The notes under the pieces: generated by a model
The model's input: the letters and a program-made list of their open reading frames with translations, nothing else
Told to the model about the DNA's origin: nothing
Databases searched by the model: none
Position numbers and translations under genes: made by a program
From: Prorocentrum cordatum
Lineage: Eukaryota
Direction: 5' to 3'
DNA length: 53,813 nucleotides
NCBI GenBank assembly: GCA_963575745.1
Contig: CAUYUJ010000286.1
Span: 62,001 to 115,813 of the forward strand
In this document: positions 10,481-51,827 of the stretch, piece after piece
How the letters are laid out: every line of letters begins with the position of its first letter
How positions within the stretch are numbered: the first letter of the stretch is position 1

Positions 10481-11644
10481 CTGACATCTCGGGCCCAAAA
10501 TGGGCCGCTCGCCCCCAGGGTTGCTCGGCGCGACACCGCGGCCCTGTCTCGCGGAGAGCATCCCCTCTGGAGTGACGCGGCCCATGCGGATTGCGAAACC
10601 GCGTGGACCTCGAAGGGCGGCCGCTGGAACCTGTTGAAACAGACAAACACTTTCGACCGCGCGGTGGCCCGCGGCCTGCAGGCGATGCGATTGACGTTGG
10701 CCCCGGGGCCCCCAGCGCCATATAGACGCCGCTGCGAGCGCCAAGGGGGCCTCGGAGGGCCCCTCCTAAGCCCGGCGTGGAAAAGCGACACCGTCTCTAA
10801 GGCGAGCCCCAGGAGACGTTCGCTTCCAGGTCTGAATCGACTTTGCTGTCGGCGGACGCGTTCAAAACGCGAGTGGCGCGGGCCTGCGCACAGGCAGCCG
10901 CGGCTGCCCAAACGAGAAAGACGGGACGCCAGCAAGGCCTGCCCTCCACGGAAGCCCCCCCGCTGGCCGCGCGCGGCAAAAGGGCCCTCAAGCCATGTTT
11001 GGAATTCGAACTCGGCCCCGAACCCGAGCTTTATGTTTCACGAGAGTTCAAAGTTCGAGTTCGAACCCCGACTCGAACTCGAAATTCTGCACTCGGCAAT
11101 GTTTCAGGTTCGAGTTTGGCGCACAAGGTTTTAACTGGGACCCGGCGGTCAACCGTCAACCAGGTCACAGCCGGGACCCTCGTAGAGCTCTCGGAACGCG
11201 GAGTAGTGCCGAATACAAAGAGAAAGCTCAAATAGCAGCTTGAAACCCGGGAAAAATTATCGGTGTTATACGAGGCTCGTTCCCCCAAGTGTCTTCATAA
11301 TAATATTACAGCTAGAGACTTCAGAATTCAACAGGCCGACGCGCCAGAACCTACTACGAGTGCAGGAATACTGGAGCTGTGTAGCTTGCTTTCTGTTTGC
11401 GTTAAGTGCACGAGACAAGTATCATCTTGAAAAATCCATCCCGACGGCCGACGGTTTCCCCACGTTTGTGTTGGCAGTAATACTGCAGCTAGGGACCTGA
11501 AGATTTACAGTCAGACGCGGCACAAACCGCTCCACGTTACAGAAATCCGGGTTCCCAAAACGAATGTTCAAATCTCTCACAATCTCCAAATTAGCCTGGC
11601 GAAGGACCCAACCATATGCAGTTGTGGGTATCGCATTCGGGTGA

Positions 11645-12178
11645 GCCCCGTATGTGGGGGGGACGCATGCGAACTGCGCCACTGGGACCTTCGGTGGAGC
11701 TCCCTATGAGGCCACGAAACGCTGTACTGGGCGGGGGAGACGCATGCGAACTGCGCCACTGGGACCTTCGGTGGAGCTCCCTGTGGGGACACGAAACGCT
11801 CTACTGGGTGGGGGGGACGCATGCGAACTCCGCCACTGGGAACTCCGGGGAGCTAACTATGGAGCCACGAAACGCTTCTCTGGGTGCGGGGGGGGCGCAG
11901 AACTGCGCCACTGGGGCCTTCGGTGGAGCTCCTATGGGGCCACGAAAAGCTGCCCTGAGTGAAGGAACCGCATGCGGGCTGTGCCACTGGGACCTCCGGT
12001 GGAGCTCCGTATGAGGATATGAAACGCTGCCCTGGGGAACCGCATGGGGACTGTGCCACTGGAACCTTCGGTGTCGCTCCGTATGGGGCCACGAAACGCT
12101 GCCCTGGGTGGGGGAGCCGCATGCGGGCTGTGCCACTGGAACCTTCGGTGGAGCTCCCTGTGGGGGTACGAAACAATT
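11645..12178. repeat. ~77-bp tandem repeat, ~7 copies
   Basis: gcatgcgaactgcgccactgggaccttcggtggagctccctatggggccacgaaacgctg; gcatgc at 11665, 11742 and 11819. Confidence 0.93.
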
Positions 12179-12774
12179 GTAGAGCTCTTAATCGCGCGAC
12201 TGCTTGGAACATCGAAGGAGCTTTCTCGAGATGATCTAAGAAACTCGGAAAATTACAATGTTTAGTTTTTCTCGGTTCCCTCAAGTGTTTCGATAGTAAT
12301 ACTGCAGCTAGGGACCTGAAAATTGAACTGGCAGGCACGGAATAACGCGACACACGTGAAAAAATACCGGTCCTTGAACGAATTTTCAAAATTTGCACAA
12401 AGAAACAAAAACCGACCCGAGTCAACACATTGTCTCTTTAGGTCGGGTCTGCCAACTGGGAGCCGGCGGTAAACCGTCAATCAGATTACCGCCAGCAGCC
12501 TCGTAGAGCCCTTTGATCGCGCGGCGCTGCTTGGAACACATGGAAGAAGCTTTCGGTGATCTGAAAACCTCGAAAAATACGATTGTTAGTTTTTGCTTCT
12601 AAAGTCGGTTCCCTCAAGTGTTTTGATAATAATATTGAAGCTACGAACCTGAGAATTGGACTGGCAGGCGCGGCATAACCCACGAAACGTGAAAAAATAC
12701 TGGTTCTATTTTGAGAAAGATACAAAAACCGACCCCTAGTTCCCACATTGTCCCTTTTGGTCGGGTCCGCGAAC

Positions 12775-13750: not shown

Positions 13751-13751
13751 G

Positions 13752-16524
13752 CTGCCAGGGGGGGCAGATCTCACAGACATGAGCCAGAGACAGAACCTCT
13801 TGGAATCCAGCGCTGCAGACAGCCCTCCTGAGCCATCCTTTTGTCAGGAGCGCGAGCGCAGGCGTCTCGTGTATGAGAAGGCCCTGTCAACCAAGAGTCC
13901 ATGGCTGCAGGCGCGTTGTCAGATGTTGCATGGGGCGGGGGATTGGATACGGCACAGGGGAGAACTGGGCGCCGGCGGTAAACCGTCAACCTTTCTCACC
14001 GCCGGGGGACTCGTAGAGCTTCCTGACAACATATAATGTCGAAAAAAATTGCAGAGAACGAACAGTTTTTCAGCCCAAGCGATTTCAGACCTCTCGATGC
14101 AACAGCCGAACGCCCCCGATGCTTCTGGATTGTCTTCTGCACGAGCTCTGTAGCTCTCCTAGAGCCCGAGTTACGTGCGTAAATCGACAGCACCTCTCAA
14201 GATGACTCGAACAATACGAATAGTTTCGCGAACCTAGCTCGAGTATCAGACCGAGTTCAGACCTCTGAATGCAACAAGCGGACGCGTCTGATGTCTCCGA
14301 ATCGATTCCTGTGATTACCAGCCCTGCAGCGCCCCTACAGCCCGAGTTTAGTGCAGAAAACCGACAGCACCTCTCAGAATGACTCGACCAATACGAATAC
14401 GAAAAGTTTAGCGGACCTAGTTCGGGCAGCAGACCGAGTTCCGAGCTCTGGATTCGACAGGCGGACGCGCCTGATGTCTTCAAATCGATTCCTGTGACCA
14501 CCAGCACTGCAGGCCCCCTACAGCCCGAGTTGAGTGCAGAAAAGACAGCACCTCTGAAGATAACTCGAACAATACGAATAGTTTCGCGATTCTTGATCGG
14601 GCAGCAGACCGAGTTCAGAGCCCTAGATTGAACAGACAAACGCGACTGGTGATTCTGAATCGGTTTCTGTAAGCATCAGCTCTGTAGCTGTCCCATAGCT
14701 CGAGTTAAGTACAGAAAACCGAGAGCGCCTGTCAAGATCACTCGAATAATACGAATAGGTTTGGCAATCTAGCTCGGCTAGCAGACCGAGTTCAGACCTC
14801 TGGATCCAAGAGACGAACGCGCCTGATCATTCTGAATCGATAAGGTGTGCTTACCAGCTCTGTAGCTGTCCTGTATCTCGAGTTAAGTCCAACATACCGA
14901 CAGCGCGTATCAAGATGATTCGAAACGGCCGATCCCGCCTGGACGCTTTTTGGGAATAAAAGGTACCCGATCGAGCTGAGATCAAGATGGCGAGCGGGAA
15001 TAAGATCGAATAATACGTGGGACCGGCGGTAGACCGTCAACCAGGTTACCGCCGGGACCCTCGTAGAGCTCTTTTCTCACACGGCGCTTCTCGGTACACA
15101 TGGAGAAAGCTTCTGGAGCGAGAAACAAAAAAATCGAAAAATCAAGTTTTTCTGTTTTTATCCAACGTCGGTTCCTCCAAGTGTTATAGTAATACTGCAC
15201 CTACGGACCTCAGAATTTGACTGGCAGACGCGGCATACCCCACTACAGGTGACAAAAATCTGGTTTCTCAAAATGAATGGTCAAATTTCTTTCAAATGTT
15301 AGCAAAACCGACCGAAAGTCACCACTTTGTCTCTTGAGGCCGGGTCGGCCAACTAGCTCCACCCCGCGCCGGAATTCCTCCAGCTCATCGACGCCGAAGA
15401 GCTAGCTCTACGAGGTACTAGGTCTCCAACGAATGGTTAAATTTCGAGAACAAAATTGTCAACCGACCAAAAGTCAGCAAAAGGTCCGTGGAGATGTTCC
15501 TTGCCAACTAGCTCTCCAGCGCCCCGGAATTACTCTTGAGCTTCCAGCAACAACTTGCTAAGGGAAGCTCTACGAGTTATTTCTGAAGGCGACCCCAGCT
15601 AGTACGAGGCAGCAAATGAGGAGGAGGCTGGTAGGTGGAGGAAAAGAGAGGACAGGATTGAGATCATGGCAAGGGGTCTTTGAAAAGCTTGCTGGGCAGT
15701 CATGCTGGTGGGAGAAATGGCACTTCTCGGAGAAAGCGCTCCGAGAATTCCTTCAGAAGGTGCTGGCAGAATGTGATGAGAGCTCACTGTGGGACCTATG
15801 CAATGTTAAGGGTGGAGGAAGCGACTTCGAGCAAGGAGGTGGAGGAGGTGTTGAGGGGGAGCGAGGATGAGGAATAACAGAAGGGAGACAGAGGAGAAGG
15901 AGATAAGCAAGGGCAGAAGAAAGCCAGAGGACTCGCATATAACTTCAAACAGGACACGGTGTGGAATCAGAAGCTCCCAGAAAAGACAGGTACCATCATG
16001 TGTCCATTCTCGGGGGACTCTCCCACTATCAAGCTCAGGGGGGAATGGTATACTCAGAATGAGAAATATCATAAAATATTATGGAAAACACATGTTCACA
16101 TGGAGACATGGTGCAATCAATATCCCATAAGACCACCATATTGAAAGATGACCTCTGGCGTCATATCTACCGAAAAGGAGACGAGGAGGCAGATCAATTT
16201 ACGTCGAGGGCTCGCGAGAGCCCAACCAATTCCTATATGTACAAAAAATACACAAATCTTAAGAACGGAGAAACCTTAGCTGCTGTCAGGGGTCACTTTG
16301 ACGGTGGGAGAAGCGTCTCTGGAAGTGTCGTGGGCTACTGGCTGCAGGGCCTAATTGTTGATCGTACCACACAGACCTCAGAATGGAGGACCTTGCAAGA
16401 GACGGGCTTGCTTCTGGGGCATGATGCGACGGCGAAGGAGTCCGAATTTATAGCGGCATTGCGGTTGTTCCAGACCGCCCGAGAGTTCACTACAAGAAAG
16501 GCGAGGCAGGAGGTGGGATTTTGA
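13752..16524 (+). pseudogene. 5'-truncated, frameshifted LINE-like ORF remnant (LINE-2) split by an A+B insertion at 13965-15579; ends in a permuted RNase H
   Basis: Pieces homologous to the 820-aa ORF: PWLQARCQMLHGAGDW vs AFVDSRRGLLMYNVEW; RRRLVGGGKERTGLRSWQ vs KRLRAGPERVGQRSWQ; QKKARGLAYNFKQDTVW vs QKLAKRLAIIYERQTVW; SGDS..LRGEW vs KGDS..LTGRW; RHIYRKGDEEADQFTSRAR vs RHEFREDNTRADELTHLAR; VRGHFDGG..GYWLQ vs CRGGYDGG..GFWLQ. Confidence 0.85.
13965..15579 (-). mobile_element. Complete family A element with a nested family B element (~15017-15417)
   Basis: Runs ctgggcgccggcggtaa ... gggaagctctacgagtta on +; its removal restores the LINE-2 reading frame. Confidence 0.88.
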
Positions 16525-19500
16525 CTTCGAATTCATGACTATTGAGGCCCACTCCTCTGATGGAGGTGCGCCATTTGTGATTATTTTGTTCAGAGCTACG
16601 CTGAGTTATTTCTTCTTATTTTGTTTTGTTCACAAGTGCACACTTCATTCTTCGGAGTTGTTACCTCACTCAGCTATACTGTGATTCTAAATTTTAGCTT
16701 CGCACGTCCCATCCTGGAAGCACGTAGGTGTTACTCTTGGCTGTGTGGTGGTCGGGGTCTCGTTTGGAGACTTCGGTGCAATGCCTCGTTTGGAGCTCGA
16801 GCCTGTGTGTCGGGACGGGCCTCGTTTGGAGTCGCGAGACGCTGCGCTGCGGGTGAGACATTCGCACAGTCTACGCAAACGCCAGAAAACAAGGTTCAGG
16901 GTTTATCGCCGGCTCCTAGTTCACTCGTAGATCTCCCCTAACAGCGTTAGCGGCGAAGCTAGAAGAGTAATGGCGTCGACCGTGAACCGTCAAGCTGGTC
17001 ACCGCCGGGAACCTCGTGGAGCTCCTTGCACGCGCACAAGTGCTCAGAATCGAAGCAGACAGCTTGTCGGAACATTTTTAGAAAAACGTCAAATTTGCAT
17101 TTTTCGACTCTCTCTAGAGAGCTGATTCTCCCTCAGACTAAAAGTTAAAACACTAATGCTGGGAGTGAAATCTAATGTTTCAAAACATGGTTCAAACACT
17201 GGGCGCCGGCGGTAAACCGTCAACCTTTTCCCGGGGGACTCGTAGAGCTTCCTGACAACATATAATGTCGAAAAAATAACAAAGAAAAAATAGTTTTTCA
17301 GCCCAAGCAATTTCAGACCTCTCGGATGCAACAGCCGAACGCCCCCGATGCTTCTGGATTGTCCTGTACGAGCTCTGTAGCTCTCCTACAGCCCGAGTTA
17401 CGTGCGTAAATCGACAGCATTTCTCAAGATGACTCGAACAGTACGAATAGTTTGGCAACCTAGCTCGAGTATCAGACCGAGTTCAGACCTCTGCATCCGA
17501 CAGGCGGACGCGTCTGATGTCTCTGAATCGATTCCTGTGATTACCAGCCCTGCAGCCCCCCCTACAGCCCGAGTTAAGTGCAGGAAACCGACAGCACCTC
17601 TCAGGATGACTCGAACAATACGAATAGCTTCGCGGAGCTAGTTCGGGCAGCAGACAGAGTTCGGAGCTCTGGATTCGAAAGGCGGACGCGCCTGATGTCT
17701 CCGAATCGATTCCAGTGATTACCAGCCATGCAGCCCCCCTACAGCCCGAGTTAAGTGCAGAGAACCGACAGCACCTCTCAAGATAACTCGAACAATACGA
17801 ATAGTTTCGCGATTCTAGATCGGGCAGCAGACCGAGTTCAGAGCTCTGATTCAACAGACAACGGCCACTGATGATTCTGAATCAGATTCTGTACGCATCA
17901 GCTCTGTAGCTGTCCTGTAGCTCGAGTTAAGTACAGAAAACCGAGAGCGTCTGTCAAGATGACTCGAATAATACGAATAGGTTTGCGGACCTAGCTCGGC
18001 TAGCAGACCGAGTTCAGACCTCTGGGTTCAACAGGCGAGCGCGCCTGATCATTCTGAATCGATTAGCTGTGCTTACCAGCTCTGTAGCTGTCCTAAAGCT
18101 CGAGTTATCTTGAGAAAACCGTCACCGCGTGACAAGATGACCCGAAACGGGCGATCCCGCCGCAGTGCTTTTAGGCAGTAAAAGGTACCCGATCGAGCTG
18201 AGATCAAGACGGCGAGCGGGAATAAGATCGAATATCACGGGAAAAAATACTAGAGCTCTAACGAATGTTCAAATTTCGAGAACAAAATTCTCAACCGACC
18301 AAAAGTCAGCAAAACTGGGCGCCGGCGGTAAACCGTCAACCTTTCTTATCGCCGGGGGACTCGTAGAGCTTCCTGACAACATATAATGTTGAAAAAAAGG
18401 AAGTTTTTTCAGCCCAAGCGATGTCAGACCTCCCGATGCAACAGCCGAACGCCCCCCGATGCTCCTGGATTGTCTTCTGCACGAGCTCTGTAGCTCTCCT
18501 ACAGCCCGAGTTACGTGCGTTAATCGACAGCACCTCGCAAGATGACTCGAACAAAACGAATAGTTTGGCAAACCCAGCTCGAGTATCAGGCCGAGTTCAG
18601 ACCTCTGAATGCGACAGGCGGACGCGTCTGATGTCTCCGAATCGATTTCTGTGATTACCAGCCCTGCAGCCCCCCTACAGCCCGAGTTGAGTGCAGAAAG
18701 CCGACAGCATCTTTTAGGATGACTCGAACAATACGAACAGCTTCGCGGACCCAGTTCGGGCAGCAGAGCGAGTTTCGAGCTCTGGATTCCACAGGCGGAC
18801 GCGCCTGATGTCTCCAAATCGATTGCTGTCACCACCAGCACTGTAGCCCCCCTACAGCCCGAGTTAAGTGCAGAAAACCGACAGCACCTCTCAAGATGAC
18901 TCGAACAATACGAACAGTTTCGCGATTCTGGATCGGGCAGCAGACCGAGTTAAGAGCTCTGGATTCAACAGACGAACGCGACTAATGATTCTGAATCGAT
19001 TTCTGTACGCATCAGCTCTGTAGCGGTCCTATAGCTCGAGTTAAGTACAGAAAACCGAGAGCGCCTGTCAAGATGACTCGAATAATACGAATAGGTTTGC
19101 GGACCTAGCTCGGCTAGCAGACCGAGTTCAGACCTCTGGATGCAACAGACGAACGCGTCTGATTATTCTGAGTGCAGAAGGTGTGCTGACCAGCTCTGTA
19201 GCTGTCCTATATCTCGAGTTAAATCCAATATACCGTCACCGCGTGACAAGATGACCCGAAACGGGCGATCCCGCCGCAGTGCTTTTTGGCAGTAAAAGGT
19301 ACCCGATCGAGCTGAGATCAAGACGGCGAGCGGGAATAAGATCGAATATCGCGGAAAAAAATACTAGAGCTCTAACGAATGTTCAAATTTTGAGAACAAA
19401 ATTTTCAACCGACCAAAAGTCAGCAAAAGGTCCGTCGAGATTTTCTTGCCAACTAGCTCTCCAGCGCCCCGGAATTACTGGGCGCCGGCGGTAAACCGTC

Positions 19501-22500
19501 AACCCTTCTTACCGCCGGGGGACTCGTAGAGCTTCCTGACCATGTATTATGTTCGAAAAAATACCAGAGAACGAATTGTTTTTAAGGCCGAGCTGATAGC
19601 AGATTGATCTCAGGCGGCTAGTGATATCCCATTGCTGTGCTGGGAGGAAATAGCAGAGTACGTATCCGTTTTTGGCGTCTGCGTTCACAACAGACTCGAA
19701 CCAAGCGTCTAAATGCTTCACGCCTCACGATTTCCTTCTGATTTTTCGGCCGCTCGAGTTCAGTGAAGAAAGTCACCATTATTTGGAAACAGAAAACCAG
19801 TCGAATACGAATAATTTTGTGAACCTTACTGGGATAGCAGACCGATTTCAGACCTCTCGATGCAACAGACGAACGCTCCTGATGCTTCTGGATCGGTTTC
19901 TGTGCGCACCAGCTCTGTAGCTCTCCTACAGCCCGAGTTACGTGCGAAAACCGACGGCACCTCTCAAGATGACTCGAACGATACGAATAGGTTCGCAGAC
20001 CTAGCTCGAGTAGCAGACCCATTTCAGGCCTCTGGATGCAACGGACGAACGCGCCTGATCAGTCTGCATCGGTTTCTGTGCGTATCAGCTCTGCAGCTCC
20101 CCTAGAGATCGAATAAAGTACAGAAATCCGACAGTCTCTATCGAAATGACTCGAGCGATACGAACAGTTTTGCGGACTTAGCTCGAGTAGCAGACCAAGT
20201 TCAAACCTCTGCATGCGACAGGCGAACGCGCTTGACGTCTACGAATCGGTTTCTGTGATTACCAGCCCTGTATCCCCTCTACAGCTCGAGTTAAGTACAG
20301 AAAACAGACAGCACCTCTCAAGATGACTCGAACAATACGAATAATTTCGCGGACCTAGCTCGAGCAGCAAACTGAGTTCAGACCTCTGGGTTCAACAGAC
20401 AAACGCGCCTGATGATTCCGAATCGGTTTCTGTAAGTATCAGCATTACTCTTAAGCTTCCAGCAACAACTTGCTAAGGGAAGCTCTACGAGTTATTTTCA
20501 ACCGACCAAAAGTCAGCAAAAGGTCCGTCGAGATTTTTCTTGCCAGCTAGCTCTCCAGCGCCCCGGAATTACTCTTAAGCTTCCAGCAATAACTTGCTAA
20601 GGGAAGCTCTACGAGTTATTATAAAATCGAGCCCAAGTTAGATTGTTCGTCCAGGCCGGCTCGCCCAACTGGGCGCCGGCGGTAAACCGTCAACCTTCCT
20701 TACCGCCGGGGGACTCGTAGAGCTTCCTGACAATATATAATGTTTTCAGACCTCCCGATGCAACAGCCGAACGCCCCCGATGCTTCTGGATTCTCTTCTT
20801 TGCGAGCTCTGTAGCTTCCTACAGCCCGAGTTACGTGCGTAAATCGACAGCACCTCTCAAGATGACTCTAACAAAACGAATAGTTTGGCAACCCAGCTCG
20901 AGTATCAAACCGAGTTCAGACCTCTGAATGCGACAGGCGGACGCGTCTGATGCCAGCGAATCGACTCCTGTGATTACCGGCCCTGCAGCCCCCTTACAGC
21001 CCGAGTTAAGTGCAGAAAACCGACAGCACCTCTCAGGATGACTCGAACAATACAATAGTTTCGCGAACCTAGTTCGGGCAGCAGACCGAGTTCCGAGCTC
21101 TGCATTCGACAGGCGGACGCGCCTGATGTCTTCAAATCGATTCCTGTAACCACAGCACAGTAGCCGCCCCCCAGCCCGAGTTGAGTGCAGAAAACCGAGA
21201 GCACTTTGAAGATGACTCGAACAATACGAATAGTTTCGCGGTTCTAGATCGGGCAGCAGACCGAGTTCAGAGCTCTGCATTCAACAGACAAATGCGACTG
21301 ATGATTCTGAATTGGTTTCTGTAAGTATCAGCTCTTTAGCTGTCCTATAGCTCGAGTTAAGTACAGAAAACCGAGAGCGTCTGTCAAGATGACTCGAATA
21401 ATACGAATAGGTTTGCAGACCTAGCTCGGCTAGCAGACCGAGTTCAGACCTCTAGATTCAACAGGCCAACGCGCCTGATCATTCTGGATCGATTATCTGT
21501 GCTTCCCAGCTCTGTAACTGTCCTAAAGCTCGAGTTATGTTCAGAAAACCATCATCGCGTGACAAGATGACCGAAACGGCCGATCCCGCCGCAGTGCATT
21601 CTGGCAGTAAAAGGTACCCGATCGAGCTGCGATCAAGATGGCGAGCGGGAATAAGATCGAATATCACGGGAAAAAATACTAGAGCTCTAACGAATGTTCA
21701 AATTTTGAGCACAAAATTTTCAACCGACCAAAAGTCAGCAAAAGGTCCGTCGAGATTTTTCTTGCCAACTCGCTCTCCAGACCCCCGAAACTGGGCGCCG
21801 GCGGTAAACCGTCAACCTTTCTTACCGCCAGGGGACTCGTAGAGCTTCCTGACAATGAATAATGTCGAAAGAAAATTGCAGAGAACGAATAGTTTTTCAG
21901 CCCAAGCGATTCCAGACCTCTGGACGCAACGGCCGAACGCCCCCCGATGCTTCTGGATTGTCTTCTGTACGAGCTCTGTAGCTCTGCTGCAGCCCGAGTT
22001 ACGTGCGTTAATCGACAGCACCTCTCAAGATGACTCGAACAAAACGAATAGTGTGGCAAACCCAGCTCGAGTATCAGACCGAGTTCGATCTCTGAATGCG
22101 ACAGGCGGACGTGTCTGATGTCTCTGAATCGATTCCTGTGATTACCAGCCTGCAGCCCCCCTGCAGCCCGAGTTAAGTGCAGGAAGCCGACAATATCTCT
22201 CAGGATGACTCGAACGATACGAAAAATTTCGCAGATCTAGTTCGGGCAGCAGACCGAGTTCCGAGTTCTGGATTCGACAGCCGAACGCGCCTGATGTCTC
22301 CAAATCGATTCCTCTCACTTCCAGCACTGTAGCCCCCCTACAGCCCGAGTTAAGTGCAGAAAACTGACAGCACCTCTCAAGATAACTCGAACAATACGAA
22401 CAGTTCTGCGATTCTAGATCGGGCAGCAGACCGAGTTCAGAGCTCTGCATTCAACAGACAAATGCAACTGCTGATTCCCAATCGATTTCTGTAAGTATCA

Positions 22501-28411: not shown

Positions 28412-28464
<53 letters not shown>

Positions 28465-39429: not shown

Positions 39430-42400
39430 ATATTCGCACTTGGTTGCGTCCAAAACCCGGAGAGCAAGGAGGGCACACACCCGAACTGGCGCCGGCGGTG
39501 AACCGTCAACCTGGTCACCGCCGGGACCTCGTAGAGCTTCTTTCACGCGTAAGAGTGCTCAGTGTCGAAAGAGTGCTTCAGGGAAAAATTGATTTTTTCG
39601 TGTCGACATGAAGATGGCTGCTCCAAGTGTTTTGATAGTAAAAGTGCGTCTATAGAGCTCATACTAAGACAGAGAGACCCTCATAGTCGTTTACAGGTGC
39701 GAAAAATCTGCTTTCTCAAAATGAATTGTCAAATATCTTTCAAAACTGGCGCCGGCGGTGAACCGTCAATCTGATCACCGCCGGGAACCTCGTAGAGCTC
39801 ATTTCAGCGTAAGAGTGTTCAGAGTCGAAAGAGAGAGCTTCTGGAAGCATTTCTCGAAAAAGGAAAAAATATGTTTTGTTCGTGTTTCCTCCAAGTGTTT
39901 TGATAGTAAAAAAGCGCCTACAGAGCTCATACTAAGACAGAGAGGCCCTCATAGTCGTTTACAGGTGCGAAAAATCTGCTTTCTCAAAATGAATTGTCAA
40001 ATATCTTTCAAAAAATTGCAAAACTACCCAAAAGTTACCACTTTGTCCTTTCTGGCCGGGTCGACCAATCGGCGCCGGCGGTAAACCGTCAACCTTTGTT
40101 ACCGCCGGGGGACTCGCAGAGCTTCCTGACAACATATAATGTCGAAAAACATCACACCGAGAAAAAAGTTTTTTAGCCCAAGCAATTTCAGACCTCTCGG
40201 ATGCAACAGCCGAACGCCCCCATGCTTCTGGAGCGTCTTCTGCACGAGCTCTGTAGCTCTCCTACAGCCCAAGTTACGTGCGTGAATCGACAGCACCTCT
40301 GAAGATGACTCGAAAAATACGAATAGTTTGGCAAACCTAGCTCGAGTATCAGACGGAGTTCAGCCCTCTGCATGCGACAGGCGGACGCGTCTGATGTCTC
40401 TGAATCGATTCCTGTGCCCTGCAGCCCCCCCCACAGCCCGAGTTAAGTGCAGGAAACCGACAGCACCTCTCAGGATGACTCGAACAATACAAACAGCTTC
40501 GGGGACCTAGTTCGGGCAGCAGACAGATTTCGGAGCTCTCGATTCGAAAGGCAGACGCGCCTGATTGCTCCAAATCGATTCCAGTGATTACCAGCCATGC
40601 AGCCCCCTTGAAGTTGAGTGCAGAGAACCGACAGCATCTCTCAAGATGACTCGAACAATACGAATAGTTTCGTGATGCTAGATCGGGCAGCAGACCGAGT
40701 TCAGAGCTCTGGATTCGACAGACAACGGCACTGATGATTCTGAATCAGATTCTGTATGTATCAGCTCTGTAGCTGTCCTGTAGCTCGAGTTAAGTACAGA
40801 AACCCAAGAGCGTCTGTCAAGATGACTCGAATAATACGAATAGGTTTGCGGACCTAGCTCAGCTAGCAGACCGAGTTCAGACCTCTTGGTGCAACAGGCG
40901 AACGCGCCTGATCATTCTGAATCGATTAGCTGTGCTTACCAGCTCTGTAGCTGTCCTGAAGCTAGATTTATCTTGAGAAAACCAACATTGCCTGTCAAGA
41001 TGACCCGAAACGGCCGATCCCGCCTGCCTGCTTTTTGGCAGTAAAAGCTACCCGATCGAGCTGAGATCAAGATGGCGAGCGGGAATAAGATCTAATAACA
41101 TGGGAAAAAATACTAGAGCTCTAACGAATGTTCAAATTTTGAGAACGAAATTTTCAACCGATCAAAAGTCACCAATAGGTCCGTCGAGATTTTTCTTGCC
41201 AACTAGCTCTCCAGCGCCCCAGAACTGGGAACCGGCGGCGAACCGTCAACCTGGCTACCGCCGAGAACCTCGTAGAGCTCTTTTCATGCACGGCGATCGT
41301 CGGAGCACATGAAGAAAGCTTCTGGAACGCGACAGAAAAAACTCGAGAAATTACGTTTTTTATGTATCCAACGTCGGTTCCTGCAAGTCTTTTGATAGTA
41401 ATATTGCAGCTACGGACCTGAAAATTTTACTGGAAGACGCGGCATAACCCACTACACGTGAGAAAAATACCGGCTCTCAAAATGAATTGTCAAATATCTT
41501 TCGAACTTGGTAGCGTCCAAAACCCGAAGAGCGAAGAGACCCTTTGGGGACGGGAAATCTTTCCTGGAGAGCTCAGCGCTTCCGAAGCGCTGGCAGAAAC
41601 GCTTCCATGCGTGCCTGCACGCGTGCAGGCACGCGTGGAAGCTTGGCGGAAGCTCTCCCGGACACGTTGCCGGCTCGAACGAACCGCCCCGAGGATTCTG
41701 GAGCGACGGAAAAGAGCTCCTGGCGGACACCACCACCGTCCGGCTTCTAATCTTAAACCCTTTAGCTCTCAGCGAGCTCTCCGGGAATCTTAACAAAACC
41801 GATCCAAAGTCATCACATTGTCTCTTTTGGTCGGGTCGGCCAACTGGGCGCCGGCGGTAAACCGTCAACCTTCCTTACCGCCGGGGGACTCGTAGAGCTT
41901 CCTGAGCATATTTAATGTCGAGAAAAATTGCAGAGAACGAATGGTTTCATCCTAAACGATTACAGACCTCTCGATGCAACAGCCAAACGCCCCTCATGCT
42001 TCTGGATTGTTTTCTGTGCGCACGAGCTCCGTAGCTCTCCTACAGCCCGAGTTACGTGCGAAAATCGACAGCACCTCTCAAGATCACTCGAAAAATACAA
42101 ATAGTTTCGCGAATCTAGCTCGAGTATCAGACCGAGTTCAGACATCTGAATGCAACAGGCGGACGCGCCTGATGTCGCCAAATCGATTCCTGTGATTACC
42201 AGCCCTGCAGCCCCCTTACAGCCCGAGTTAAGTGCAGAAAATCGACAGCACCTCTGAAGATGACTCGAACAATACGAATAGTTTCGCGGATCTAGCTCGG
42301 GCAGCAGGCCGAGTTCAGGGCTCTGAATGCGACAGGTGGACGCGACTGATGTCTCAGAATCGATTCCAGTGATTACCAGCCCTGCAGCCCCCTTACAGCT

Positions 42401-45400
42401 CGAGTTAAGTGCAGAAAACGGACAGCACCTCTCAAGATGACTCGACGAATACGAATAGTTTTGCGAACCTAGCTCGGGCAGCACACCGAGTTCCGAGCTC
42501 TGGATTCGGCAGGCGGACGCGCCTGATGTCTCCGAATCGATTCCTGTGAGCACGAGCCCTGTAGCCCCCCTACAGCCCGAGTTAAGTGCAGAAAACTGTC
42601 AGCACCTCTCAAGATGACTCGAACAACACGAATAGTTTCGCGAACCTAGCTCGGGCAGCAGACCGAGTTCAGACCTCTAGATGGAACAGACGAACGCGCC
42701 TGATGATTCGCAATCGATTTCTGTGAGAATGAGCTCTGTAGCTGCCCTACAGCTCGAGTTAAATACAAAATATTGACAACGCGTATCAAGATGACTCGAA
42801 ACAGCCGATCCCGCCGCGATGCTTTTTTGCAGAAATATTTACCCGATCGAGCTGAGATTAAGATGGCGAGCGGGAGTAAGATCGAATATGATCAGAAAAA
42901 ATACTAGAGCTCAAACGAATTGTTGAATTTCGAGAACAAAATTTTCAACCGACCAAACTGGGCGCTGGCGGTAAACCGTCAACCTTCGTTGCCGCCGGGG
43001 GACTCGTAGAGCTTCCTGACAACATATAATGTCGAAAAAAATCACACAGAAGAAATTGTTACTCAGCCCAAGCAATTTCAAACCTCTCGGATTCAACAGC
43101 CGAACGCTTCCGGTGCTTCTGGATTGTCTTCTTTACGAGCTCTGTAGCTCTCCTTCAGCCCGAAATACGCGCGTCAACCATCAGCATCTCTCAAGATGAC
43201 TCGAACAATACGAATACTTTGGCAAACCTAGCTCGAGTATCGGACTGAGTTCAGACCTCTGCATGCGACAGGCGGACGCGTCTGATGTCTCTGAATCGAT
43301 TGTGATTACCAGCCCTGCACCCCCCGCTACAGCCCGAGTTGAGTGCAGGAAATCGACAGCCACCTCTCAGGATGACTCGAAACAATACGAATAGTTGCGA
43401 ACCTAGTCGGCAGCAGAGAGAGTTTCTCTGGATTCGGCAGGCGACGCGCGGACGTCTCGAATCGATTCCGTGAGTACTAGCCAAATGCGCCCCTTACAGA
43501 CCGAGTTAGTGAGAGAACCGCCAGCATCTCAGAATTAATTTCGAGCTCGAATAATACGAATTAGTTTCGAGATTCTAGACGGGCAGCAGACCGAGAGTTC
43601 AGGAGCTCTGGGATTGCATAACAACGGCCACTGATGAATTAAGAATCAGTATTTCTGTACTATCAGCTGTGTATATGTCCTGTAGCTCGAGTTTTAGTGC
43701 AGAAAAACCGAGAGTGCATGTAAAGATGACTCAAATAATACGAATAGGTTTGAGGGACCTAGCTCGCTAGCAGACCGAGTTCAGACCTCTGGATTCAACA
43801 GGCAAACGCGCCTGATCATTCTGAATCGATTAGCTGTGCTTACCAGCTCTGTAGCTGTCCTGTATCTCGAGTTAAGTCCAATATACCGACAGCGCGTGTC
43901 AAGATGACTCGAAACTGCCGATCCCGCCCGTGTGCTTTTTGGCAGTAAAAGGTACCCGATCGAGCTGAGATCAAGATGGCGAGCGGGAATAAGATCGAAT
44001 ATCACGGGAAAAAATACTAGAGCTCAAACGAATTGTTGAATTTCGAGAACAAAATTTTCAACCGACCAAAAGTCAGCAAAAGGTCCGTCGAGGTTTGTCT
44101 TGCCAACTAGCTCTCCAGCGCGCCGGAATTTTACTCTTAAGCTTCCAGCAACTAGCTAAGGGAAGCTCTACGAGTTAAGTCAGCAAAAGGTCCGTCGAGA
44201 TTTTCCTTGCCAACTGGGCGCCGGGGTAAACCGTCAACCGTTGTTACCGCGGGGGACTCGTAGAGCTTCTTGACAACATTATAATGTTCGAAAGAAATTA
44301 CCACCGAAAAAATAGTTTTTCAGCCAGGCATTTGAGACCTCTAAGATGAGAACAGCGAGCCACCGATGATTCTAGATTGTCTTCTATACGAGCTCTGTAG
44401 CTCTCCTACAGCCCGAGTTACGTGCGTAAATCGACAGCACCTCTCAAGATGACTCGAACAATACGAATAGTTTGGCAAACCTAGTTCGAGTATCAGACCG
44501 AATTCAGACCTCTGCATGCGACAGGCGGACGCGTCTGAAGTCTTTGAATCGATCCCTGTGATAACCAGCCCTGCAGCACCCCCTGCAAGCCGAGTTAAGT
44601 GCAGGAAACCGACAGCACCTCTCAGGATGACTCGAACAATACAAATAGTTTCGCGGACCTAGTTTGGGCAACAGACCGAGTTCCGAGCTCTGGATTCCGC
44701 AGGCGAACGCGCCTGATCCGAATCGATTCCAGTGATTACCAGCCATGCGGCCCCCCTACAGCCCGAGTTAAGTGCAGAGAACGGACAGCATCTCGTAAGC
44801 GACTCGAACAATACGAATAGTTTCGCGATTCTAGATCGGGCAGCAGACCCAGTTCAGAGCTCAGGATTCAACAGACAACGACCACTGATGATTCTGAATC
44901 AGTTTCTGTACGTATCAGCTCTATGGCTGCTCTGTAGCTCGAGTTAAGTACAGAAAACCGAGAGCGCCTGTCAAGATGACTCGAATAATACGAATAGGTT
45001 TGCGCACCAAGCTCGGCTAGCAGACTGAATTCAGACCTCTGGCTTCAGCAGGCGAACGCGCCTGATCATTCTGAATCGATTAGCTGTGCTTACCAGCTCT
45101 TTAGCTGTCCTGAAGCTCGAGTTATCTTGAGAAAACCGACACCGCGTGACAAGATGACTCGAAACCGCCGATCCCGCCCGTGCTTTTTGACAGTAAAAGG
45201 TACCCGATCGAGCTGAGATCAAGATGGCGACGGAAATAAGATCGAAGATCACGGGAAAAAATACTAGAAGTCAAACGAATTGTTGAATTCCGAGAACAAA
45301 ATTTTCAACCGACCAAAAGTCAGCAAAAGGTCCGTCGAGATTTTCCTTGCCAACTAGCTCTCCAGCGCCCCGGAATTACTCTGAAGCTTCCAGCAATAGC

Positions 45401-45425
45401 TTGCTAAGGAAAGCTCTACGAGTTA
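39430..45425. repeat. Copy 2 of the ~6 kb tandem duplication (empty LINE site)
   Basis: Starts atattcgcacttggttgcgtccaaaacccggagagcaagg as at 30985; paired ORFs such as 35495..35911 vs 41452..41868. Confidence 0.9.
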
Positions 45426-47817
45426 CTAGCTATCCAGCGCGCCGGAATTACTGGGCGCCGGCGGTAAACCGTCAACCTTTGTTACCGCCAGGGGACTCGT
45501 AGAGCTTCCTGACAACATATAATGTCGAAAAAATTACACGCAAAAATAATTTTTCAGCCCAAGCAATTTCAGACCTCTCGGATGCAACAGCCGAACGCCC
45601 GATGCTTCTGGATTATCTTCTGCACGGGCTCGGTAGCTCTCCTACAGCCCGAGTTACGTGCGTAAATCGACAGCACCTCTCAAGATGACTCGAACAATAC
45701 GAATAGTTTTGCAAACCTAGCTCGAGTATCAGACCGAGTTCAGACCTCTGCATACGACAGGCACACGCGTCTGATGTCTCTGAATCGATTCCTGTGACTT
45801 AGAGCCCTGAAGCCCCCCTACAGCCCGAGTTAAGTGCAGGAAACCGACAGCTCCTCTCAGGATGACTCGAACAATACGAATAGTTTCGCGGACCTAGTTC
45901 GAGTTCGAGCTCTGAAAGCGACAGGCGGACGCGTCTGATGTCTCCCAATCGATTCCAGTGATTACCAGCCATGCAGCCCCCCTACAGCCCAAGTTAAGTG
46001 CAGAGAGCCGACAGCATCTCTCAAGATGACTCGAACAATACGAATAATTTCGCGATTCTAGATCGGGCAGCAAAGCGACTTCAGAGCTCTCGATTCAACA
46101 GACAACGGCCACTGATGATTCTGAATCAGATTCTGTACGCATCAGCTCTGTAGCTGTCCTGTAGCTCGAGTTAAGTACAGAAAACCAAGAGCGTCTGTCA
46201 AGATGGCTCGAATAATACGAATAGGTAGGTTTGCGGACCTAGCTCTCACAGACCGAGTTCAGACCTCTGGGTTCAACGGGCAAACGCGCCTGATCATTCT
46301 GGATCGATTAGCTGTGCTTACCAGCTCTGTAGCTGTCCTGAAGCTCGAGTTATCTTGAAAAACCGTCACCGCGTGACAAGATGACCCGAAACGGGCGATC
46401 CCGCCGCAGTGCTTTTTGGCAGTAAAAGGTACCCGATCGAGCTGAGATCAAGACGGCGAGCGGGAATAAGATCGAATATCACGGGAAAAAATATGAGAGC
46501 TCTAACGAATGGTTGAATTTCGACAACAAAATTTTCAACCGACCAAAAGTCATCAAAATGTCCTCGAGATTTTTCTTGCCAACTAGCTCTCCAGCGCCCT
46601 GGAACTGGGAACCGGCGGTAAACCGTCAACCAGGTTACCGCCGGGCACCTCGTAGAGCTCTTATCTTGCGCAGGGATCTTCGGAACACATGATAGAAGCT
46701 TTTAGAGCGAGAGCCGACAAACTCGAAAGATCACGATTTTTCAATTTTTCTCCACAGTCGTTCCTCCAAGTGTTTGGATAGTAATACTACCGCTAGAGCC
46801 ATAAAAAATGAACAGCAGGTGCGCCATATCTTGCTACAGGGAATGAAAATCTCAGTTCTAAAAACGAACTTCAAAACTGGGCGCCGGCGGTAAACCGTCA
46901 ACATTTCTTACCGCCGGGGGACTCGTAGAGCTGACAACATATAATGTCGAAAGTAATTATACAGAAAAAAATACTTTTGCAGCCCAAACAATTTCAAACA
47001 TCTCGGATGCAACGGCCGAACGCTGTCTAGCTCTCCTACAGCCCGAGTTACGTGCGTAAATCGACAGCATCTCTCGACATAAAGTTGGTTCCGCCAGGTG
47101 TTTTGATTGAAAGGGCATCTAGAGAGCTCATATTAAGACGCAGAGGCCCTCATAACCTTCTACAGGCACGGAAAATCTGCTTTCTCAAAATAAATTGTCA
47201 AATATCTTTCAAAAATACACAAAACCACCCAAAAGTTGTCACATTGTCCGCCTCGGCCGGGTGGGCCAACTAGCTCCACCCCGCGCCGGAATTCCTCTAG
47301 CTCATCGATGCCGAAGAGCTCTACGAGGTATGATGATGTGCGACTTGGCAGCGTCCACATGGTAGCGTCGAAAACCCGGGAGCAAAGGAAAAACGCAAGA
47401 TGACTCGAACAATACGAATAGTTTGGCAAACCTAGCTCGAGAATCAGACCGGGTTCAGACAGGCGGACGCGTCTGAAGTCTCTGAATCGATTCCTGTCAT
47501 TACCAGTCCTGCAGCCCCCCTACAGCCCGAGTTAAGTGCAGGAAACCGACAGCACCTCTCAGGATGACTCGAACAATAACGAATTTATTTCGCGACTAGT
47601 TCGGGATTGGATTCGAAAAGGCGGACACGCGACGGATGTCTGCGGAATCGATTCCAGTGATACCAAGCCATGCAGCCCCATACAGCCCGGAGTAGTTAAG
47701 TGGCAGAGAAACCGACAGCATCTTCGTGATCTCTCAAGATGACCGAACACTCGAACAATTACGAATAGTTTGACGATTCTAGAGATCGCGCAGCAGACCG
47801 TTATTAGAGCTCTGGCC

Positions 47818-48122
47818 AAAATTTTGTATAAATAAAATGATATTAAATATATAAAAAAAATATAACAAATAAAATAATAAATAAGTATAAAATAATATAG
47901 ATAAATAAAATATTATAATACATAATATAAATAAAAAATATATCGATAAAAAAAATAAATAAAGAAAATTAATAATAATAAACAACACAAAAATATTAAA
48001 ATTTAAAATAGTTAAATTACAAAAGTTTATAAATAATATAAGATATATATAATAAAAAAAATTAATAAATTTAAAATTAAAAATAAGATTATAATAATAA
48101 TAAATAAAAGTGAGAAAAAAAA
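47818..48122. other. Extremely AT-rich low-complexity island
   Basis: Almost only A/T inside an otherwise roughly balanced-GC array; upstream sequence is indel-rich. Confidence 0.85.
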
Positions 48123-48717
48123 CCGACCCCAGGTTACCACATTCTCTTAACGTCGGGTCGGCCAACTAGCTCCACCCTGCGCCTGAATTGCTCTTAGCTC
48201 ATTATCGAAGAGCTCTACGAGGTATTACTCTTGAGCTTGCAGCACCCCGCGCCGGAATTCCCCTAGCTCATCAATGCCGAAGAGCTCTACGAGGTATCAC
48301 TCTTAAGCTTCCAGCAACAAAAAAAATGCTAGGGGAAGCTCTCCGAGTTACTTGCTTCACCCCGCGCCGGAATTCCTCTAGCTCATCGATAACGGAGAGC
48401 TCTACGAAGTACTTGGTAGCGTCCGAAACCCGGAGAGCGAAGACACCCTCGGTGACGGGAATCTCTCCTGAAGAGCCCTGGCGGGTTTCCCTGCAGCGCT
48501 GCTGAAGCGCTGCCAGGAACGCTTCCATGCATTTCTGCACGCGTGCAGGCACGCTTGGATGCTTGCCGGAAGCTCTGCCGGACACGTTGCCGGGCCGCCG
48601 GAGGCGCTGCGAGGCCTGTGGACCGCCGTGGAAGAGGTCCTGGCGGGCACCACCACTGTGCAGCTTCTAATCTTAAACCCTTTAGCTCTCAGGGAGCTCT
48701 CCGGGAAAGGTCTCTAA

Positions 48718-48990
48718 TACCTCGTAGATCTCTTCGGCATCGATGATCTAAAGGAATTCCGGCGCGGGGTGCAGCTAGTTGGTCAACACGGTGTGGTGAC
48801 CTGGGTCGGTTTTTCGAAGATGGCGAGAGATCTTGAAATTCGTTTTGCAATTTGATTTTTTCATTCTATGCACTGAATCATGGCGCTTCGCATGGTGCAA
48901 TTCTCAGGGCCCTAGCTGCATTATTTCGATTAAAAGGCTAGCGGGAACCACCATTCTGTACGACCGGAAAACGATGTCTTTATGTTTGAA
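48718..48990 (+). mobile_element. Diverged family B element in inverted orientation
   Basis: tacctcgtagatctcttcggcatcgatga..ggaattccggcgcggggtgcagctagttgg is the reverse complement of the B terminus seen at 47264-47329. Confidence 0.8.
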
Positions 48991-51827
48991 GCTAGTATGC
49001 AAACTGGGCGCCGGCGGTAAACCGCCAACCTTTGTTACCGCCGGGGGACTCGTAGAGCTTCCTGACAACATATAATGTCGAAAGAAATTACACAGAAAAA
49101 ATAGTTTTTCAGCCCAGGCAATTTGAGACCTCTCGGATGCAACAGCCGAACGCCCCGATGCTTCTAGATTGTCTTCTGTACGAGCTCTGTAGCTCTCCTA
49201 CAGCCCGAGTTACGTGCGTAAATCGACAGCACCTCTCAGGATCGAACAATACGAACAGTTTGGCAAACCTAGCTCGAGTATCAGACCGAGTTCAGACCTC
49301 TGCATGCGACAGACGGGACGCGTCTGATGTCTCTGAATCGATCCCTGTGATTACCAGCCCTGCAGCCCCCCCCCCCCCTGCAGCCGGGTTAAGTGCAGAA
49401 AACCGACAGCACCTCTCAGGATGACTCGAACAAAACAAATAGTTTCGCGGACCTTGTTCGGGCAGCAGACCGAGTTCAGAGCTCTGGATTCCGCAGACGA
49501 ACACGCCTGATGTCTCCAAATCGATTTCAGTGATTACCAGCCACGCAGCCCCCCTACAGCCCGAGTTAAGTGCAGAGAACCGACAGCATCTCGTAAGCGA
49601 CTCGAACAATACGAATAGTTTCGCGATTCTAGATCGCGCAGCAGACCGAGTTTAGAGCTCTTGGTTCAACAGACGACGGCCACTAATGATTCTAAATGAG
49701 ATTCTGAACGCATCAGCTCTTTAGCTGTCCTGTAGCTCGAGTTAAGTACAGCAAACCGAGAGTGCCTGTCGAGATGACTCGAATAATACGAATAGGTTTG
49801 CGCACCTAGCTCGGCTAGCAGACCGAATTCAGACCTCTGGTTTCAGTAGGCGAACGCGCCTGATCATTCTGAATCGATTAGCTGTGCTTACCAGCTTCTT
49901 AGCTGTTCTCAAGCTCGAGTTATCTTGAGAAAACCGTTACCGCGTGACAAGATGACCCGAAACGGCCGATCCCGCCTGCCTGCTTTTTGGCAGTAAAAGG
50001 TATCCGATCGAGCTGAGATCAAGATAGCGAGCGAAAATAAGATCGAATATCATGGGAAAAAAACTGGAGCTCAAATGAATTGTTGAATTTCGAAAACAAA
50101 ATTTTCAATCGACCAAAAGTCAGCGAGAGGCCCGTCGAGATTTTTTCTTGCCAACTAGCTCTCCAGCGCCCCGGAATTACTCTTAGCTTCCAGCAATGAC
50201 TGGGCGCCGGCGGTAAACCGTCAACCTTGGTTACCGCCGGAAGACTCGTAGAGCTTCCTAGTTCGACTTAAGTTGAGAAAACCATCAGCACCTACCAACA
50301 TTCCGACTTATAGTGAATCTTTTTTGATCTGTGAATGCGACAGGCGGGCGCGTCTGATGTCTGCGAATCGACCCCTGTCATTGCCAGTCCTGCAGCCTCC
50401 TATGGCCCGAGTTAAGTGCAGAAAACCTGCAGCACCTCTCAGGATGACTCGAATAATACAGTAGTTTCGCAGACCTAATGCGGGCAGCAGACCGAGTTCC
50501 GAGCTTGGATTCGAGAGACGGACGCGCCTCATGTCTTTAAATCGATTCCTGTGACCAGCATCACTGTAGCCCCCCTCAGCGCGAGTTGAGTGAAGAAAAC
50601 CGAGAGCACTTCTGAAGATGACTCGACCAATACGAATAGTCGCGATTCTAGATCAGGCAGCAGACTGGGTTCAGAGCTCTAGATTCGACAGACAAACGCA
50701 ACTGATGCTTCTAAATCGGTTTCTGTGAATATCAGCTCTATAGCTGTCCTACAGCTCGAGTTCAGTACAGAAAATCGAGAGTTCATGTCAAGATGACTCG
50801 AATAATACGAATAGGTTTGCGGACCTAGCTCGGCTAGCAGACCGAGTTCAGACCTCTGGATTCAAGGGGCGAACGCGCCTAATCATTCTACATCGATAAG
50901 CTGTGCTTGCCAGCTCTGTAGCTGTACTGAAGCTCGAGTTATGCTCAGAAAACCGCTAGCGCGTATCAAGGTGACCCGAAACGACCGATCCCGCCACAGT
51001 GCTTTTCGAGTAATATTCACCCGATCGACCTGAGATCAAGATGGCGAGCGGAAATACGATCGAATATCACGGGAAAAAATATTAGAGCTCAAACGAATTG
51101 TTGAATCTCGAGAACAAAATTTTCAACCGAGCAAAGTCATCAAAAGTTCCGTCGAGATTTTGCAAGCCAACTAGCTCTCCAGCGCGCCGGAATTACTCGC
51201 TCTACGAGTTGCTTGCTAAGGGAAGCTCTACGAGTTAAGCTTTTTTCTGCTGTTATCTCGGAACCGACCTGGTCTATGCAGAGCTCTACAAGGGCCCCGG
51301 CGGTAACATCTTGGTAGCGTCCAAAATCCGAAGAGCAAAGAGAACACACACCGGAAAACCTTCCTGGCAAGCCCACGGAAGCACGCGTGAAGGTCTTCTG
51401 GGGCTCTGGGGGGCTCTCCGGCAGCGCTTCCGAAGCGCTGCCAGGAACGCTTCCACGCGTGCCTGCACGCGTGCAGGCTAGTAAAACCCGCGGCTCCAGG
51501 TTAACTGGCCAAGGGAGGGAGATTTCCTCGGATGGGCCAACAAAGAACATTTTGAGGCTGCTTTCAGGTGATGACGATGATGATGCATATAATGATGGAT
51601 ACCTCCTCCTCCGTGAACCGCCAGCCCCCCAAAAAAAGGGAGGGCCGCTCGGGCGTTTATACAATACGCCAAAATTGAAACATCCCTGCAGGCCTGAGCT
51701 GACAGCCCGCAGGAATTGAGGCGCAGCCCCATCCCGCTTCCCGCACTGCGGGTGCGCCAGCGCGGGGGGGCGGCGGGCGGCGGCGGCGCCAGCGCGCACT
51801 TGGTGGCTGTCCTCCCCCACCACACCA

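Follow-up and report, generated by a model that had tools for sequence, protein, structure and literature searches.

A 40-kb one-directional transposon nest in Prorocentrum cordatum, probably built from non-autonomous Helitron2-type elements

We analyzed a stretch of 53,813 nucleotides from Prorocentrum cordatum (assembly GCA_963575745.1, contig CAUYUJ010000286.1, positions 62,001 to 115,813 of the forward strand), referred to below as the window, in which positions 11135-51480 are nearly all repeat, read from the minus strand. The final 3' end of this array lies at 11135 and its first repeat-related base at 51478. Homology to the family that we call A accounts for 27,276 bases, with no high-scoring segment pair in the opposite orientation, and with a looser motif the minus strand showed 37 3' ends and the plus strand a single one. 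A preliminary description of the same DNA had drawn these limits and called the array nearly unidirectional, and it was right on both counts. It had also called the array satellite-like. Its basic unit, however, is a 1.2-kb element with internal 177-bp repeats. No fewer than three families, A, B and D, share the space, nested in one another or in tandem, and unique islands and a fragment of a retroelement lie among them. Since these islands and this fragment sit inside the array, the locus is a transposon nest and not a homogeneous satellite.

The unbroken copy at 27005-25794 was used as unit U for unit numbering, for the homology search and for the map (coordinates of all features are collected in Table 1). 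In a family-A element, a leader of 266 nt and a right module of 112 nt enclose a 177-bp repeat in about 4.6 copies; the whole is non-coding, and full copies are nearly constant in length, at 1195-1222 bp. Family B, of about 400 bp, has a leader and a 3' end homologous to those of A around a different interior. Every 177-bp repeat bears a terminus-like word, TAACTCGAGCT, followed by a short palindrome; this word is the 5' terminal word TAACTCGTAGAGCT minus TAG. The 177-bp repeats may be derived from the terminus, or they may be extra binding sites.

The termini of these elements are precise. The 5' word TAACTCGTAGAGCTTCCC was found 14 times at up to two mismatches, always on the minus strand, when 0.01 matches were expected from shuffled sequences and none of 100 shuffles reached 14. 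The exact 3' end of A, that is, GGAAGCTCTACGAGT followed by CCGGCGGTAA..TTACCGCCGG and CGCC(C/T)AG, occurs 19 times on the minus strand. In other words, the arrangement of 3' repeat, hairpin and terminal motif that had been noticed earlier is real, although the CTAG ends proposed with it apply to only one of these 19 ends, the other 18 being CCAG. Family A starts T-A-ACTCGTAGAGCTTCC, with a 15-nt asymmetric terminal inverted repeat (ATIR) from nucleotide 3, and B starts T-ACCTCGTAGAGCTC. In A, the 5' ATIR ACTCGTAGAGCTTCC is the exact reverse complement of the 3' ATIR GGAAGCTCTACGAGT, which is separated from the 3' hairpin by 3 nt. The proposal that the 5' ATIR is folded into a hairpin was also confirmed for A, in that the first 50 nt fold at -12.6 kcal/mol (z = -5.2) and none of 200 shuffles folded as well.

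The pairing at both ends is preserved through sequence change. In family A, the 5' end reads ACTCG..GCTTCC, the 3' end GGAAGC..CGAGT and the arm of the 5' hairpin GAGT; the corresponding sequences in B are CCTCG..GCTC, GAGC..CGAGG and GAGG. The 5' and 3' types match in all full-length elements with pairable ends, namely seven uninterrupted A and two B copies. Therefore, in both families the 5' repeat has two possible pairing partners, the arm of its own hairpin and the 3' repeat. In B and in a related metagenome family, the 5' hairpin has the same topology as in A, with compensation from ACTC/GAGT to CCTC/GAGG. We also aligned 41 3' ends, 36 from the window and five from metagenome contigs (one window end without the repeat was excluded), and among the 38 distinct sequences pairing in the 3' hairpin was retained in 96.7% of 366 cells, with one compensatory change from A-T to G-C in B.

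Next, we examined how the copies are arranged. Eleven nested cases were recognized, in which a host copy breaks off, a complete element or a composite follows, and the host resumes. Eight of the 11 hosts resume exactly and without target duplication, which agrees with the earlier naming of absent target-site duplications as a Helitron trait. This nesting was resolved by hand from the BLAST tiling map and the junction sequences, because stack-based pairing of 5' and 3' ends mis-pairs at 5'-truncated copies. We applied a published empty-site criterion, in which a 50+50-nt chimeric query must match at 90% identity or more over 90 nt or more. Four inserts passed, with 1 to 10 paralogous empty sites each, all of them inside other repeat copies; the remaining inserts gave 96-98% over 76-88 nt, where host pieces were shorter than 50 nt, or 82-86%, where the hosts were diverged B copies. 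At 15012, the site of a B insert in the window, contigs of the public sequencing runs X1 and X2 carry on as uninterrupted A. Two copies adjoin unique window sequence, at 15579 and 13965, and an X1 contig over 13765-13964 extends a further 171 letters at the point where an A 3' end stands in the window, which might represent an empty site. Host pieces differ from the consensus by 11.6-13.4% and inserts by 4.0-5.4%, in keeping with a later arrival of the inserts.

The inserted copies show a clear bias in both site and strand. T follows all 33 3' ends that have a readable AG terminus, four more 3' ends being mutated. For the 5' side, we counted 19 independent junctions after dropping two copies generated by a 6-kb duplication (see below) and one degenerate remnant. 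AG precedes eight of these junctions (background 3.8%, p = 2e-7) and two purines precede 15 of them (background 21%, p = 1e-7), with one T at the junction being ambiguous between element and target. The target resembles the element's own 3' junction, YAG^T, and this explains the head-to-tail junctions at 25794/25793 and 23412/23411 as well as the insertions right behind the ...CCAAG end of D. All 11 nested inserts lie in the orientation of their host (p = 0.001), and all nine insertions into A hosts fall within unit 1-165. The leader has five AGT sites, four of which have served as targets, whereas the 11 AGT sites in the rest of the unit have received no insertion (Fisher p = 0.003), and no 5' end in the window has 177-bp-repeat sequence just upstream.

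Insertion is not the only process that has shaped the array. About 19 5' ends (21 motif hits) stand against the 37 3' ends, so that many copies must be 5'-truncated; about half of the copies are of this kind and abut the 3' end of another copy with no matching upstream piece. They start at unit 27, 48, 51, 73, 86, 98 or 109, most commonly at 51. In addition, a higher-order block of about 6 kb is present in about 2.6 copies, and similarity between these copies begins and breaks off at A termini. The simplest explanation of this duplication would be unequal recombination among A copies in direct orientation. We also considered a rolling-circle concatemer, but the right edge of the repeat lies 58 nt past a 3' end, and recombination would be the simpler account. 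Thus the preliminary proposal that repeated self-insertion built the array captures the precise nesting in one orientation, but leaves out the block duplication and the 5'-truncated copies. A retroelement fragment interrupts one copy of the duplicated block only, and it was inserted after the duplication; it replaced about 18 nt at insertion and ends CCCAAAAAA. Pfam finds nothing in its 825-aa open frame. The single database homologue of this frame (56% identity) carries the reverse-transcriptase domain PF00078, and the atlas neighbours of the frame are RVT_1/RNase_H proteins at scores of 0.85-0.87, which serve as a lead only. As a partner of A and B, the fragment is ruled out by its different 3' end and by its interruption of an older element.

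To look beyond the window, metagenomes were scanned with the conserved 3' pattern. Five contigs (L001-L005) of 1.4-2.2 kb were obtained, all non-coding, with members of related families in which the 5' word and the 3' end recur and the internal repeats measure about 180 bp. Compared with A, four contigs are 70-78% identical over their longer alignments and the fifth is about 85% identical; one of the four, L005, shares only the 3' end of about 60-70 nt with A, at 90-98%. The junction types of the window recur there at unit 47/48, 50/51 and 72/73: unit 48-72 and then a new 5' end come after a 3' end, 3' ends also run into unit 51, and at 47/48 the 5' end is doubled. The neighbours of these copies are other than those of the window copies. 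In four public runs, thousands to 160,000 contigs match A, B or a 77-bp repeat found at the edge of the array, and the summed contig depth, which is not a copy number, is 1e3 to 3e5 on these sequences and about 0-3 on unique flank. A, B and the 77-bp repeat are very abundant in these runs. The best-matching sequencing run shares 0.13 of words, and no RNA run is among the matches listed. A scan of prokaryote genomes and viral contigs for the 3' end gave no match, and a full-text literature search with the terminal words returned only unrelated primers.

We then compared the array with known systems, for which excerpts of the cited papers served as the source throughout. In the definition of Helitron2 excerpted from Bao & Jurka (2013, PMC3627910), the 5' ATIR lies 0-2 nt from the end and within a 5' hairpin, and a second hairpin comes directly after the 3' ATIR; the same authors' model has the 5' repeat pairing with the hairpin arm or the 3' repeat and notes compensatory changes. 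In A and B, the 5' ATIR begins within 0-2 nt of the end and takes part in a hairpin, the 3' ATIR stands just before a hairpin, and target-site duplication is absent at the eight exact sites described above. The attribution of this architecture to Helitron2 in the preliminary description is thus upheld, since the terminal layout equals the one published for Helitron2 and also that of the Helentron-associated interspersed elements (HINEs). The non-autonomous Helitron2 elements of Chlamydomonas reinhardtii (Helitron-1N1_CRe and CRe-1/2/3; PMC3627910) share with the array the ATIR/hairpin layout, the 5' T, changes that preserve pairing, and short elements without target duplication. As excerpted, they also include 'one-ended' 5'-truncated copies with an excess of 3' ends and sometimes duplications of variable length, of which the 27-nt and TAA duplications seen here are reminiscent; the 27-nt one corresponds to unit 98-125, is 26/27 identical and surrounds the composite 20494-18315. 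However, their 3' ATIR lies 20-30 nt from the terminus, compared with 44 nt here, and their target follows TTTT, compared with RR^T (R, purine) here. Furthermore, unlike them, the array elements have 177-bp internal repeats, home into their own leader and have no known autonomous partner.

HINEs (DINE-1 of Drosophila, HINE-Mo of a mite, and Cg_HINE/pearl of oysters; Thomas et al. 2014, Vojvoda Zeljko et al. 2020; PMC4067079, PMC7492417) resemble the array elements in several respects. According to the excerpts, they have the same left and right modules on both sides of central satellite-like tandem repeats, which are of about 160-180 bp, together with 12-15-nt subterminal inverted repeats and a 3' palindrome, and the array elements have this organization too. 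The right repeat of HINEs lies 38-60 nt from the end, a range that includes the 44 nt of the array elements. Absence of target duplication, a T-rich target, very high copy number and integration into other repeats are shared as well. HINEs are dispersed, with T runs at both ends, whereas here a 40-kb one-directional nest has its hot spots in the first 165 nt; likewise, HINE termini are oligo-T, whereas those of the array are T...YAG. Heli2Xen, a Xenopus Helitron2 (PMC12001565), has non-autonomous copies that are described as mainly a 166-bp minisatellite and so resembles the array in its satellite-like content. The excerpt ascribes its tandem arrays to rolling-circle replication, and these and other Helitron-derived arrays contain 2-7 repeats of a monomer, whereas the present array has entire elements nested in one another and a duplicated 6-kb block made up of several elements. 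Finally, the telomere-capping Helitrons of Paramecium (PMC13085455) are described as having an absolute orientation bias, with strand-specific insertion into a repeated target as its proposed cause, and the array is likewise biased; however, they belong to a different clade and target the telomeric repeat, whereas the array elements target their own leader. For this homing, and for arrays built by it, we found no report in the literature searched, with subscription journals and Repbase outside it.

Taken together, these results indicate that the array is probably a nest of non-autonomous elements of the HLE2 group of Helitron-like elements (Helitron2/Helentron type), similar to HINEs in their central satellite-like repeat. 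The elements are of a known kind in an unusually tidy arrangement, and strict same-strand homing into their own leader is the less ordinary trait. Several observations weigh against this assignment. None of the 137 window frames of at least 100 aa contains a Rep/helicase or any transposase domain by Pfam, which agrees with the earlier expectation that the enzyme is not encoded inside the window, and none of the 28 frames of at least 80 aa in the five metagenome contigs contains a Rep/helicase or other transposase domain either. In fact, these 137 frames include no recognizable gene, the only Pfam matches being weak, low-complexity ones in the flanks that fall below the curated cut-offs. The target does not seem to follow strictly the insertion rule excerpted for HLE2 elements, which is T^T for Helentron and T^(T/C) for Helitron2, and several empty sites read AG-T-A. 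The energy of the 3' hairpin is unexceptional for G+C-rich DNA (z = -1.7), and taken alone the 5' hairpin folds no better than shuffles in either B or the metagenome family (z = -0.6 to -1.0). At three of the 11 nested sites the junction is imperfect: two carry duplications, of 27 nt and 3 nt, and at the third the host has lost 13 nt. The excess of 3' ends means that many junctions are not simple insertions, the single 6-kb duplication accounts for part of the regularity of the array, and copies that are 4-13% off the consensus give no sign of current activity.

Each of the other explanations that we weighed fails on at least one tested feature. The elements could be single-strand transposons, HUH-type or other, from outside the Helitron-like class, moved for example by a Replitron-like Rep that lacks a fused helicase or by some enzyme not yet described. 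We consider this improbable. It would fit with the lack of a Rep/helicase protein in the window and in the metagenome contigs and with a target that is not strictly T^T, and bacterial IS91 and IS608-type elements have targets that mimic the element's own 3' junction, much as RR^T does here. However, the excerpted definitions of Helitron2 and HINEs describe exactly the combination seen here, in which the 5' ATIR is part of a hairpin, the 3' ATIR is subterminal and directly precedes another hairpin, the first base is T and repeats occupy the centre. Replitrons, for their part, have short direct repeats at their ends and are not known to carry ATIRs, which argues against the Replitron-like version.

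A non-autonomous retroposon resembling a short interspersed element (SINE), copied by a long interspersed element (LINE) that recognizes the 3' stem-loop, is less probable still. Intact 3' ends, T-rich targets and frequent loss of the 5' part (many copies are 5'-truncated and 37 3' ends face about 19 5' ends) would follow from target-primed reverse transcription, and a reverse-transcriptase fragment does lie in the array in the same orientation. However, that fragment ends CCCAAAAAA without the A/B 3' end and interrupts an older element in one copy of the duplication only. A and B have neither an A-tail nor a microsatellite tail, most insertions lack target duplications, and the 5' terminus is defined, with an ATIR that co-varies with the 3' ATIR. 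Moreover, Rfam gave no match and ARAGORN no tRNA in the window, so that no tRNA, 7SL or 5S-like part was found; the tail and the pol III promoter-like head of a SINE or other LINE-dependent retroposon are thus missing, and so is a 3' end in common with the reverse-transcriptase fragment. A cut-and-paste miniature inverted-repeat transposable element of the DDE type was rejected, given that 44 nt separate the 3' repeat from the end and no regular duplication occurs. An ordinary complex satellite, whose apparent termini would be parts of a unit reshuffled by unequal crossing-over and small deletions without any transposition, would account for the two head-to-tail junctions, the 6-kb block, the single direction of all copies and the very high run depth, but it is the least probable of the three, in view of hosts that are broken at seven different unit positions and resume exactly, three families of unrelated length nested in each other with unique islands inside, inserts younger than hosts, full copies of constant length, and related copies with other neighbours in the metagenome contigs.

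Returning to non-autonomous HLE2-group elements, the results above show the architecture, the precise ends, the nesting, the orientation, the choice of site and the duplication; rolling-circle chemistry and the identity of the enzyme we infer, and we propose the following course. A Rep/helicase encoded elsewhere in the genome would recognize the 5' ATIR with its hairpin and the 3' ATIR with its hairpin and cut the top strand twice, immediately ahead of the 5' T and immediately behind the 3' C(C/T)AG. The strand would then be pasted, without target duplication, in front of a T, and the two bases before this T are usually purines, AG being the commonest pair. New copies have repeatedly landed in the 165-nt leader of resident copies or right behind a resident 3' end, always on the same strand, and this gave nested and head-to-tail copies in one orientation. 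Recombination between direct copies then probably duplicated the 6-kb block, and the retroelement entered one of the copies afterwards. We also considered the possibility that homing takes place while resident copies are unwound: a Rep/helicase nicking the 5' end of a resident would displace its top strand, and a second strand would be pasted into the first ~165 nt at RR^T. This idea is speculative and rather unlikely. If it is true, then homing coupled to unwinding would alone account for hot spots confined to the leader, for inserts that all lie on one strand, for copies joined head to tail and for an array born directly from transposition, and it would be a way of self-targeting that the literature searched does not describe for Helitron-like elements.

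In flies, oysters and frogs, non-autonomous Helentron and Helitron2 elements that carry repeats in their centre are already regarded as a seed of satellite DNA. The present locus shows an intermediate stage unusually clearly, with one-orientation stacking by precise self-insertion and then amplification by recombination. The bias towards the leader and towards sites that resemble the 3' junction provides a testable rule for rolling-circle target choice and array building. For annotation, what looks like a 40-kb satellite is better masked as three transposon families.

Table 1. Features of the array, in positions of the window; unit positions refer to the reference family-A copy
Feature	Position	Strand	Remarks
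Whole array, families A, B and D nested or in tandem, with unique islands	11135..51480	minus	BLAST tiling map
Reference full-length family-A element, 1212 bp	25794..27005	minus	unbroken from 5' end to 3' end
5' ATIR (unit 3-17, ACTCGTAGAGCTTCC) within 5' hairpin (unit 3-48)	26958..27003	minus	
Internal array of ~4.6 x 177-bp repeats (unit ~267-1100)	25906..26739	minus	Tandem Repeats Finder period 171-183 throughout the array
3' subterminal ATIR GGAAGCTCTACGAGT	25838..25852	minus	ends 44 nt short of the 3' end
3' hairpin CCGGCGGTAA(14 nt)TTACCGCCGG, then CGCCCAG	25794..25834	minus	10 bp
Full-length B, 402 bp	15016..15417	minus	
Full-length B, 399 bp	22927..23325	minus	
B-like element with 6.9 x 77-bp satellite (~12174-11654) replacing the 177-bp repeats	11135..12455	minus	
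Family-D element, 283 bp, nested in B	41505..41787	minus	
Further D copies	48707-48411, 35830-35548, 29406-28580 (long form)	minus	
Shorter A variant in A, unit 26/27	insert 51211-50200; host 51237-51212 + 50199-49004	minus	exact; joined flanks match A unit 1-57 at 96.5%; 97.4% over 76 nt
Composite in B	insert 48350-41844; host 48410-48351 + 41843-41225	minus	exact; joined flanks match contiguous B at 86% over 100 nt, 91.7% over 60 nt
Host A(c) with three inserts	41844..48350; pieces 48350-48297, 45450-45426, 44213-44178, 42957-41844	minus	
Composite in A(c), unit 47/48	48296-45451	minus	exact
Full-length A in A(c), unit 72/73 (GCTAG^TTGG)	45425-44214	minus	exact; joined flanks 96.6% over 87 nt
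Full-length A in A(c), unit 108/109	44177-42958	minus	exact; joined flanks 100% over 57 nt, 97.7% over 88 nt
D in B	41787-41505	minus	exact
A-A head-to-tail dimer in H, unit 50/51	insert 27005-24578; host 27055-27006 + 24577-23412	minus	exact; 8 uninterrupted copies match at >=90% over >=90 nt
B in A5, unit 86/87	insert 23325-22927; host 23411-23326 + 22926-21791	minus	exact; 10 paralogous empty sites
A8 with its insert, in A7, unit 125	20494-18315	minus	27-nt direct duplication
5'-truncated copy X in A8, unit 50	20443-19478	minus	3-nt (TAA) duplication
Order A7 (1-125) / A8 (1-50) / X / A8 (48-end) / A7 (98-end)	17199..20618	minus	
B in A11, unit 163/164 (CTAG^T)	insert 15417-15016; host 15579-15418 + 15012-13965	minus	~13-nt host deletion
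~6-kb higher-order block, ~2.6 copies	29761..45428	minus	megablast self-comparison: 45428-41272 and 39432-35312 (94.5%); 41254-38212 and 32811-29761 (93.8%)
5'-truncated retroelement fragment, ~2.5 kb, 825-aa open frame 35323-32846	32812..35311	minus	in one copy of the duplicated block only
Mostly unique island (unique part ~15580-16970)	15580..17198	minus	summed depth in run X1 is 9, against ~1e5 on A
Unique island inside the array	13750-13964		

Only two reverse-oriented pieces occur in the array. One is the sole reverse-oriented 3'-end/5'-end junction, which belongs to a diverged relative and lies on the plus strand at about 16895-16935, within the island at 15580..17198; the other is 74 nt of a B 5' end at 48718-48791, also on the plus strand. 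Between a B 5' end and fragments of A repeats, a block of about 300 bp (47816-48118) is nearly pure A+T with TAAA-like repeats. The window carries long microsatellites and a poly-A/T run; the flanks are rich in CAA, GAC, GAG and GGA microsatellites, with no Pfam match above the cut-offs, and the left flank includes a 100-N assembly gap at 3405-3504. The 77-bp satellite at the array edge has the highest summed depth of all sequences in runs X1-X3, and related 21/42-bp GGGGCCACGAAGGGCAGC repeats lie outside the array at 2044-2825. Family D ends in ...GGGTTTTGGACGCTACCAAG and has the central palindrome GCGTGCCTGCACGCGTGCAGGCACGC; in addition to the copies in Table 1, its tails are found at 51310-51343, 39438-39471 and 27059-27090. 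B carries D at two different sites, the 5' end of A or B directly follows a D end at least four times, and D is also present in the metagenome contig L003.

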